NCBI RefSeq assembly: GCF_003334255.1
Contig: NZ_QOWU01000073.1
Length of the DNA stretch: 18,664 nucleotides
Source of the DNA: Escherichia coli
GTDB lineage: Bacteria; Pseudomonadota; Gammaproteobacteria; Enterobacterales; Enterobacteriaceae
Strand: one strand, 5' to 3'
The notes beneath the pieces were generated by a model. The model did not search any database. It was not told the DNA's origin and saw nothing but the letters and a program-made list of their open reading frames with translations. The position numbers were made by a program, and so were the translations under genes. This document shows, piece after piece, positions 2,162 through 2,877 of this stretch. Position 1 is the first letter of the stretch. Every line of letters starts with the position of its first letter.

Positions 2162-2656
2162 ATGAACCGTGTTCTGTGTGTGGTGATTATTGTCATGCTG
2201 GTAGCCTGTGGTGTGCTTAGTCTGGGGCTGAATCATTACCGTGATAACGCCATAACCTACAAAGAGCAGCGCGATAAAAAAGTCAGTGAGCTGGAGCAGG
2301 CAAATGCAACCATTACTGATATGCAGCAGCGCCAGCGTGATGTTGCTGCACTTGATGCCAGATACTCGAGGGAATTAGCCGATGCGAGAGCTGAAAATGA
2401 AACTCTGCGCGCTGACGTTGCCGCTGGTCGTAAGCGCCTGCGTATCAACGCCACCTGTCCAGGTCCCGTGCGTGAAGCCACCGGCACCGCCCGCGTGGAT
2501 AATGCAACCGGCCCCCGACTGGCAGACACCGCTGAACGGGATTATTTCACCCTCAGAGAGCGGTTGATGACAATGCAGAAGCAGCTGGAAGGGGCGCAGG
2601 AATATATCCGCACTCAGTGCACTAAGCTGGCTTTTTATTATCCGGAGAATGCATGA
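2162..2656 (+). CDS. Rz: Rz inner-membrane spanin (i-spanin)
   Basis: Internal Met of track ORF 2078..2656. N-terminal TM then [16 protein letters not shown]...[20 protein letters not shown], close to lambda Rz as recalled. Embedded +1 frame Rz1 confirms. Confidence 0.9.
2382..2567 (+). CDS. Rz1: Rz1 outer-membrane lipoprotein spanin (o-spanin), embedded in Rz in the +1 frame
   Basis: [20 protein letters not shown] has lipobox VSAC, followed by a Pro-rich mature region ([30 protein letters not shown]) nearly identical in pattern to lambda Rz1. Lies wholly inside Rz in another frame. Confidence 0.85.
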
Positions 2657-2877
2657 AGAAATTACTGGTAACCGTAAAGCCTTTTCAGGGAACAATTCCG
2701 TTCCGTATTTTGCAGCGTGGTCGTGTTCTTGTTGAAGGTTCGTTCAGTGGTAAATGTACGCAATTACATTCCCGGACCTTTCAGGTGAATGCCACGAATG
2801 AAGAGCTAACCGTTGAGTGTACGATGAATGCCGCTAAATGCCGCATGGTATCCGCTGCATTACAGCCAGTGTGTTGA
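2653..2877 (+). CDS. Hypothetical protein, 74 aa, translationally coupled to Rz
   Basis: ATG overlaps the Rz stop (ATGA at 2653-2656). GGAG sits 6 nt upstream. No signal peptide and no recognised motif. Confidence 0.45.

Follow-up and report, generated by a model that had tools for sequence, protein, structure and literature searches.

An 18,664-nucleotide (nt) stretch of Escherichia coli DNA (contig NZ_QOWU01000073.1 of assembly GCF_003334255.1; hereafter the window) carries, at the end of the spanin gene Rz, a 74-codon open reading frame that we call ORF74 (positions 2653-2877). Comparison with related loci indicates that ORF74 is a genuine protein-coding gene and a dispensable accessory gene of lambdoid prophages, and that its overlap with the Rz stop codon is a lineage-specific feature. 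The best-supported reading, which we hold with moderate confidence, is that ORF74 is a genuine but dispensable late-operon accessory gene for a small cytoplasmic binding module, which in many relatives is paired with a second small protein of the family PHROG 4280. Within this reading, we infer late co-transcription, cytoplasmic location, binding function and heterodimer formation. It is ranked above a role in lysis, a surface-binding role and the decay of an orphan gene, each of which is considered below.

Coding status and distribution of ORF74

Since 76 open reading frames of at least 30 amino acids (aa) overlap the first 6 kb of the window, a chance frame of 74 codons would not be unusual and the case for ORF74 as a gene therefore rests on comparison. 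Nei-Gojobori rates were calculated from ORF74 coding DNA of independent contigs. Over the full length, the ratio of non-synonymous to synonymous rates (dN/dS, or omega) of divergent pairs was 0.21-0.52, with a significant synonymous excess in most pairs. Over the first 55 aligned codons the ratio was 0.12-0.54, whereas the two shifted frames scattered around ~1-2. Because the substitution pattern is frame-specific, we take ORF74 to be a genuine coding sequence. The first-pass annotation had named loss of the frame from close relatives as a counter-sign; the frame was kept in every relative examined. Protein homologues down to 26-30% identity keep both the length and the predicted fold. These two results, the frame-specific pattern and the distant homologues, contradict the view that ORF74 is a chance frame over conserved non-coding DNA, to which its shortness and the equal or better conservation of the adjacent 195-nt block might have pointed, and we consider that view extremely improbable.

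Pairs within the clade gave omega values of 0.2-0.5 (e.g. the window against loci L018 and L014), and the window differed from the O157:H7 copy in L059 by three synonymous and no non-synonymous changes. A different picture was seen for the allele of L007 (O55:H7, CP001846.1, 5001-5225), which differs from the window by 16 non-synonymous and three synonymous changes (omega 1.8, not significant), in contrast to the 0.2-0.5 of all other pairs. This pattern is compatible with episodic fast change, as in proteins contacting host factors. It could also be taken, together with the absence of the PHROG 4280 partner from the window (34 E. coli genomes carry this partner versus 1,244 for ORF74), as a sign that ORF74 in this clade is an orphan that lost its partner and now drifts without function. 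Decay of this kind is quite unlikely, in view of the purifying omega values and the purely synonymous difference from L059; moreover, none of the records sampled has a broken or unannotated frame, and the sole deletion seen, a 9-nt loss of three codons in an allele of sequence type ST131, is in frame.

ORF74 was found by blastn in 1,244 of 5,426 complete E. coli genomes, in up to six copies per genome, and was intact and annotated as a coding sequence in all 30 E. coli records sampled across the match ranking. The exact protein occurs on at least 1,000 contigs, and window positions 2100-3600 are identical to prophage DNA in several E. coli chromosomes. A protein search returned 66 clusters at E <=0.01, with identity down to 56%; the named clusters were all from E. 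coli or Salmonella, and the full-length ones were mostly 68-79 aa. When the 1.5-kb region 2100-3600 (Rz, ORF74 and a TonB-like gene) was used as the query, 4,567 genomes and 450 phage records were matched, compared with 1,244 and 28 for ORF74 itself. Since the region around Rz matches far more genomes and phage records than carry ORF74, the gene is dispensable. The 28 phage records are mostly Stx2c, Stx2a and Stx1a converting phages, plus H-19B.

The guanine plus cytosine (GC) content of ORF74, at 45.8%, is below that of Rz (53.5%), of the terminase genes (55-58%) and of the flanking late genes overall (53-58%). The first-pass annotation had placed ORF74 at the start of a block of morons; in agreement, it lies where the low-GC accessory genes begin. 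With lambdoid morons such as lambda bor and stx, ORF74 shares the lower GC content, patchy presence in close relatives and a module boundary after Rz. Unlike autonomous morons, it showed neither a promoter nor a terminator of its own in a consensus scan, in which no sigma-70-like site was seen on the + strand of 2162-2652 (inside Rz) and no terminator after 2877, and its product is neither a lipoprotein nor a toxin. Without such signals, ORF74 looks like a passenger of the late transcript, which by analogy with lambda biology would be the most economical reading. ORF74 would thus ride along behind the lysis genes, at the 3' end of their cassette, and probably share the late-operon transcript; its protein is probably produced only on prophage induction.

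The junction with Rz and the position in the late operon

The first-pass annotation described ORF74 as translationally coupled to Rz, on the basis of an ATGA start overlapping the Rz stop and a GGAG at proper spacing. The coordinates of the frame, the overlap and the GGAG (2644-2647, 5 nt before the ATG) were all borne out, whereas coupling as a functional link with Rz was not. We compared the 90 nt upstream of the ORF74 start in nine contexts. The junction is conserved as TAAG..G..TTTTT.TTATC.GGAG.ATG. followed by the start ATGAAG, with a purine-rich GGAG, GGGGG or AGGAG at the same place in 9/9 close relatives examined. In L002, L012, L014 and L059, Rz stops at a TAG (after ...TQCIK or ...TQCIN) located 20 nt before the ORF74 ATG. 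The same codon reads CTG in the window, CCG in L007 and CAG in L018, so that Rz runs on for nine codons to a TGA that is part of every ATGAAG start. In the TAG-type relatives, the stretch matching these extra codons is a non-coding spacer with the conserved T-run and Shine-Dalgarno sequence. In the O157:H7 strain MB41-1, the identical 74-aa protein is encoded uncoupled behind an Rz of 155 aa; counting the stop codon, 23 nt separate the two genes as annotated.

These comparisons show that the ATGA overlap is a by-product of stop-codon loss in one Rz lineage (164 versus 155 aa). The stop/start overlap expected of a translationally coupled pair is present, but the arrangement is not conserved, because most relatives have the 20-nt spacer after TAG and the identical protein occurs uncoupled. 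Judged from the sequences, the overlap is thus specific to a lineage and no conserved property of ORF74, and should not be read as a functional link. ORF74 would be translated from its own Shine-Dalgarno sequence, to which re-initiation after Rz may add in the window's lineage, since stop-codon loss extended Rz into the ATGA there. A similar overlap was seen in L054 (4001-4004), where the GTG start of a distant family member overlaps the Rz1 stop (GTGA). It was acquired independently, and such overlaps therefore arise easily at the tight spanin junction. We also considered an Rz-ORF74 fusion by frameshifting at the T-run; this was rejected, as the T-run lies after the Rz stop in relatives and the frame of ORF74 meets a stop 10 codons before its ATG.

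A comparison of synteny with other lambdoid lysis cassettes, as the first-pass annotation had proposed, showed that in the close subfamily ORF74 always lies 3' of Rz/Rz1 or of a remnant of their 3' end. The genes that follow are Nu1/GpA terminases in L002, L004 and L010, HNH with Terminase_2/TerL in the window, L007, L018, L059 and L060, HNH with Terminase_4/TerL in L012, and DUF1441/GpA in L014. With four different terminase modules downstream, ORF74 therefore travels with the end of the lysis cassette and not with the packaging module. More distant members were placed in 13 non-redundant IMG/VR loci. In nine of these the gene comes directly after the spanins or a short distance behind them, and in two it lies between a Q-like antiterminator and the holin; of the remaining two, L057 has no recognisable neighbour and L034 has the gene ~1.4 kb beyond a possible spanin. 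Elsewhere, the family member gp60 of phage mEp237 follows the spanin, P0083 lies after DUF2570/LysC spanins, P0080 and P0068 are upstream of holins, and P0089 is in a tail module. Lambdoid phages classically acquire accessory genes such as bor and stx behind Rz and behind Q, and the contexts of the distant members are the usual places for such insertions in lambdoid late operons.

This placement bears on the alternative that ORF74 is a lysis accessory or regulator acting with the spanins or on lysis timing, with Rz coupling setting the protein ratio. Its position immediately after Rz/Rz1 in all close and most distant relatives would fit such a role, as would the independent GTGA overlap in L054 and the fusion, in P0068, of an ORF74-like domain to the C-terminal half of a DUF1327/YdfR-type lysis-cassette protein. 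ORF74 is indeed adjacent to Rz/Rz1 on the same strand, with the stop/start overlap in the window's lineage. Unlike the spanins, however, it has no membrane anchor, lipobox or sequence similarity to them and is dispensable in most relatives. Its sole family match lies elsewhere (PHROG 2571, see below), and residues 2-8 form a beta strand in the structural model. The working parts of spanins are periplasmic, whereas ORF74 has neither a membrane segment nor a signal peptide. Most of the phage records that the 1.5-kb query around Rz matched also lack it, the identical protein is found uncoupled, some family members lie in a tail module or in the interval from Q to the holin, and the favoured sites are the same classic insertion points that other accessory genes use. 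Therefore, we consider a lysis role unlikely and prefer the reading of ORF74 as a late-operon accessory gene.

In P0068, the ORF74-like domain replaces the N-terminal half of the DUF1327/YdfR-type protein, and the C-terminal part of P0068 is homologous to the C-terminal half of the protein encoded at 122-652 in the window. Homology between ORF74 and the N-terminal half of the latter protein was rejected (hhalign probability 0.3).

Protein family, predicted fold and partner gene

The first-pass annotation saw neither a signal peptide nor a recognisable motif in ORF74. In agreement, no signal peptide or membrane segment was detected (maximum Kyte-Doolittle hydropathy of 0.8 over 15 residues), and Pfam and NCBIfam gave no match. 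The homology search and structure prediction that it had called for gave a family and a fold. The sole family match was PHROG 2571, of unknown function, whose 291-position profile aligns at positions 100-172 with residues 1-73 of ORF74 (E 2.8e-28). The AlphaFold2 model has a mean predicted local distance difference test (pLDDT) score of 90 and a predicted template modelling (pTM) score of 0.76, with six strands (2-8, 11-21, 24-35, 39-45, 52-55 and 66-71) and a short helix (60-63). The product is thus predicted to be a small soluble beta-sandwich. It is basic (isoelectric point 9.7), and its four cysteines are not conserved across the wider family.

The ORF74 product is most likely a binding module and neither an enzyme nor a component of the spanin apparatus. 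With known binding modules of small beta-sandwich type (CBM6/35/36, lambda J domain and XepA) it shares 6-17% sequence identity, and no shared binding residues could be named. Another reading is that ORF74 binds carbohydrates or surfaces, either as a decoration of the virion or, once lysis has released it, extracellularly. We regard this as distinctly improbable: the scores are typical of any small beta-sandwich, ORF74 combines with four unrelated head/packaging modules, and it has no export signal and no cysteines conserved in the wider family. The cytoplasmic binding module thus remains our preferred description of the product.

When 1.84 billion representative proteins were searched with a profile, 48 matches reached E <=0.001; most are of 70-82 aa, with the family pattern MKKLxVT...G..V.F.V.Q.G.VL.ED..SGK...Y.R.Y.V.A.D..L.VEH. 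The small distant members P0080, P0083 and P0089 match the same positions of PHROG 2571. Foldseek against AFDB50 returned the same family in Yersinia, Klebsiella, Xenorhabdus, Morganella, Enterobacter and Erwinia, all uncharacterised. The PHROG 2571 profile owes its length of 291 positions to E. coli proteins of 280-286 aa, such as PhiR46_1 XSB42772.1, which have additional N- and C-terminal parts; in one such protein of 286 aa, ORF74 aligns to residues 101-153. We considered whether ORF74 is a fragment of such a larger protein, and rejected this because proteins of the long form come solely from E. coli (at >=80% identity), the stand-alone proteins of 70-82 aa dominate the family, and tblastn found no remnant of the extra parts in the window. 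Other extended members have 117-169 aa. An in-frame fusion of DUF1737 to an ORF74-like domain (P0002, 125 aa; L016 93-470), with its junction a few bases before the ATG, was found on a single 1.5-kb contig and was set aside as probably recombinant or an assembly artefact. In distant relatives, another small conserved frame of 63-84 aa often lies between the spanins and the ORF74-family gene (L029 3745-3936, L039 989-1231, L019 3687-3941) and carries the motif G..V.(I/V)(T/D)ISGE.G.(V/I)K.RAE.

The gene that frequently accompanies the family belongs to PHROG 4280 (67-73 aa). It is located ~60-95 nt downstream of the ORF74-family gene in 11 of 30 IMG/VR loci, and also in L002, L019, L024 and mEp237, and encodes the pattern MFV..GLK.DPDN.GWVLGW.VVR..PWHL.GVYAT...YGSHRLGSDDF. 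In L004-L006, a copy without its first 15 residues abuts ORF74. PHROG 4280 proteins are 65-67% identical across contexts whose ORF74-like proteins share only ~30% identity with that of the window, and the gene is also found beside an unrelated gene in Pseudomonas phages. A linker-fused pair of an ORF74-family and a PHROG 4280 protein was modelled with AlphaFold2 from a 12-row paired alignment. Both domains reached a pLDDT of ~90 and the pTM was 0.71, which is above expectation for two independently placed domains and hints at a heterodimer. In many relatives, the ORF74-like protein would therefore probably form a heterodimer with the PHROG 4280 product, or have a C-terminal extension instead, and the clade in most E. 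coli, including the window, would stand alone without a partner.

Several points weigh against the reading of ORF74 as an accessory binding module. The strong preference for the spanin 3' boundary could reflect a lysis-related role. The promoter scans used consensus sequences only, so the gene may also be expressed in the lysogen. The proposed heterodimer rests on one pTM value, without an error map or control. In addition, the window lacks PHROG 4280, and at the DNA level just 34 of the 5,426 E. coli genomes were found to carry it; the partner, being absent or rare in E. coli, therefore says little about how the window's ORF74 works. Finally, Pfam, NCBIfam, PADLOC, PDB sequences and BFVD gave no functional clue. 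No anti-phage defence family in PADLOC matched ORF74 at E up to 1, and Foldseek against the viral models of BFVD gave nothing at E <=0.001. Literature searches by accession, sequence motif and topic returned nothing on the protein in the open literature.

A bolder version of the pairing, to which we give a modest chance, is that the PHROG 2571 beta-sandwich and PHROG 4280 form an unrecognised two-protein late-operon module of Enterobacterales phages. Such a module would be found preferentially at the borders of the lysis cassette and would act late, as infection ends, e.g. to tune lysis or to block a host defence triggered by late proteins, and the window's clade would be a derived, partner-free form.

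Neighbouring features and significance

The features of the window and the PHROG 4280 genes of its relatives are listed in Table 1.

Table 1. Coordinates of ORF74, its junction with Rz, neighbouring features of the window and PHROG 4280 genes in relatives
Feature	Coordinates	Strand	Evidence or remark
ORF74 (74 aa)	2653-2877	+	ORF list; PHROG 2571 match; exact match to RefSeq WP_000735655.1 ("hypothetical protein")
Shine-Dalgarno GGAG	2644-2647	+	ends 5 nt upstream of ORF74 ATG
ATGA overlap of ORF74 start with Rz stop	2653-2656	+	ATG 2653-2655, TGA 2654-2656
Rz (i-spanin), 164 aa	2162-2656	+	PHROG 13 'Rz-like spanin', E 2e-77; RefSeq 'lysis protein'
Rz1 (o-spanin lipoprotein)	2382-2567	+	embedded in Rz, other frame; PHROG 3198, E 2e-30
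Nine extra Rz codons, LAFYYPENA	2627-2653	+	ancestral TAG (2627-2629) is CTG in the window
195-nt block, GC 57%	2878-3072	.	no annotated gene (RefSeq); travels with ORF74 in relatives
Lipoprotein gene, 108 aa, GC 43%	3222-3548	+	lipobox LVMGC; TonB C-terminal domain (TIGR01352, 54.5 bits); PHROG 1267
Promoter-like site of lipoprotein gene	3162-3189
Tiny hydrophobic ORFs (43, 51, 28 aa)	1812-1943, 1907-2062, 2074-2160	+	between endolysin and Rz; RefSeq hypothetical
Terminator-like hairpin, strong	1610-1642		after endolysin gene
DUF1327/YdfR-type protein, full length	122-652	+	PHROG 2091, E 3e-80; between holin and endolysin
PHROG 4280 gene	L002 5265-5471; L019 4341-4559; L024 4294-4512; L027 (mEp237) 4306-4527		unknown function, weak DUF7457 match

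The block that follows ORF74 (2878-3072) is 86-97% identical in E. coli prophages and Stx phages, equal to or above ORF74 itself. Synteny breaks exactly at its end, and one relative has a 1-nt indel inside it. Folding z-scores of 0.04 and -0.73 gave no RNA-structure signal for the block, and Rfam had no family match anywhere in the window. A decayed PHROG 4280 partner within the block was rejected, as tblastn with three partner proteins gave zero matches in the window.

Beyond the block, the TonB-like lipoprotein gene resembles a true moron, as it combines a low GC content with a promoter-like site of its own. Its PHROG label, 'Rz-like spanin', looks like a mislabel, and the lipoprotein might interfere with TonB-dependent receptors. 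On the other side of the spanins, the strong hairpin after the endolysin gene lies upstream of the three tiny hydrophobic frames.

The ORF74 protein already has uncharacterised entries in RefSeq, UniProt and PHROGs, and the finding of the gene is in this sense ordinary. What is new here is how the Rz overlap arose, that the family as a whole prefers the edges of the lysis cassette, and that a partner gene frequently accompanies it. For annotation, the value lies in knowing that ORF74 is by its substitution pattern truly coding, that the overlap with Rz implies no functional link, and that relatives frequently carry a partner gene. Nearly one in four complete E. coli genomes carries ORF74, among them strains of O157:H7, O145, ST131 and enteropathogenic E. 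coli (EPEC), and so do several Stx-converting phages. If it affects the outcome of induction, be it lysis, defence evasion or toxin release, it would be relevant for pathogen biology.
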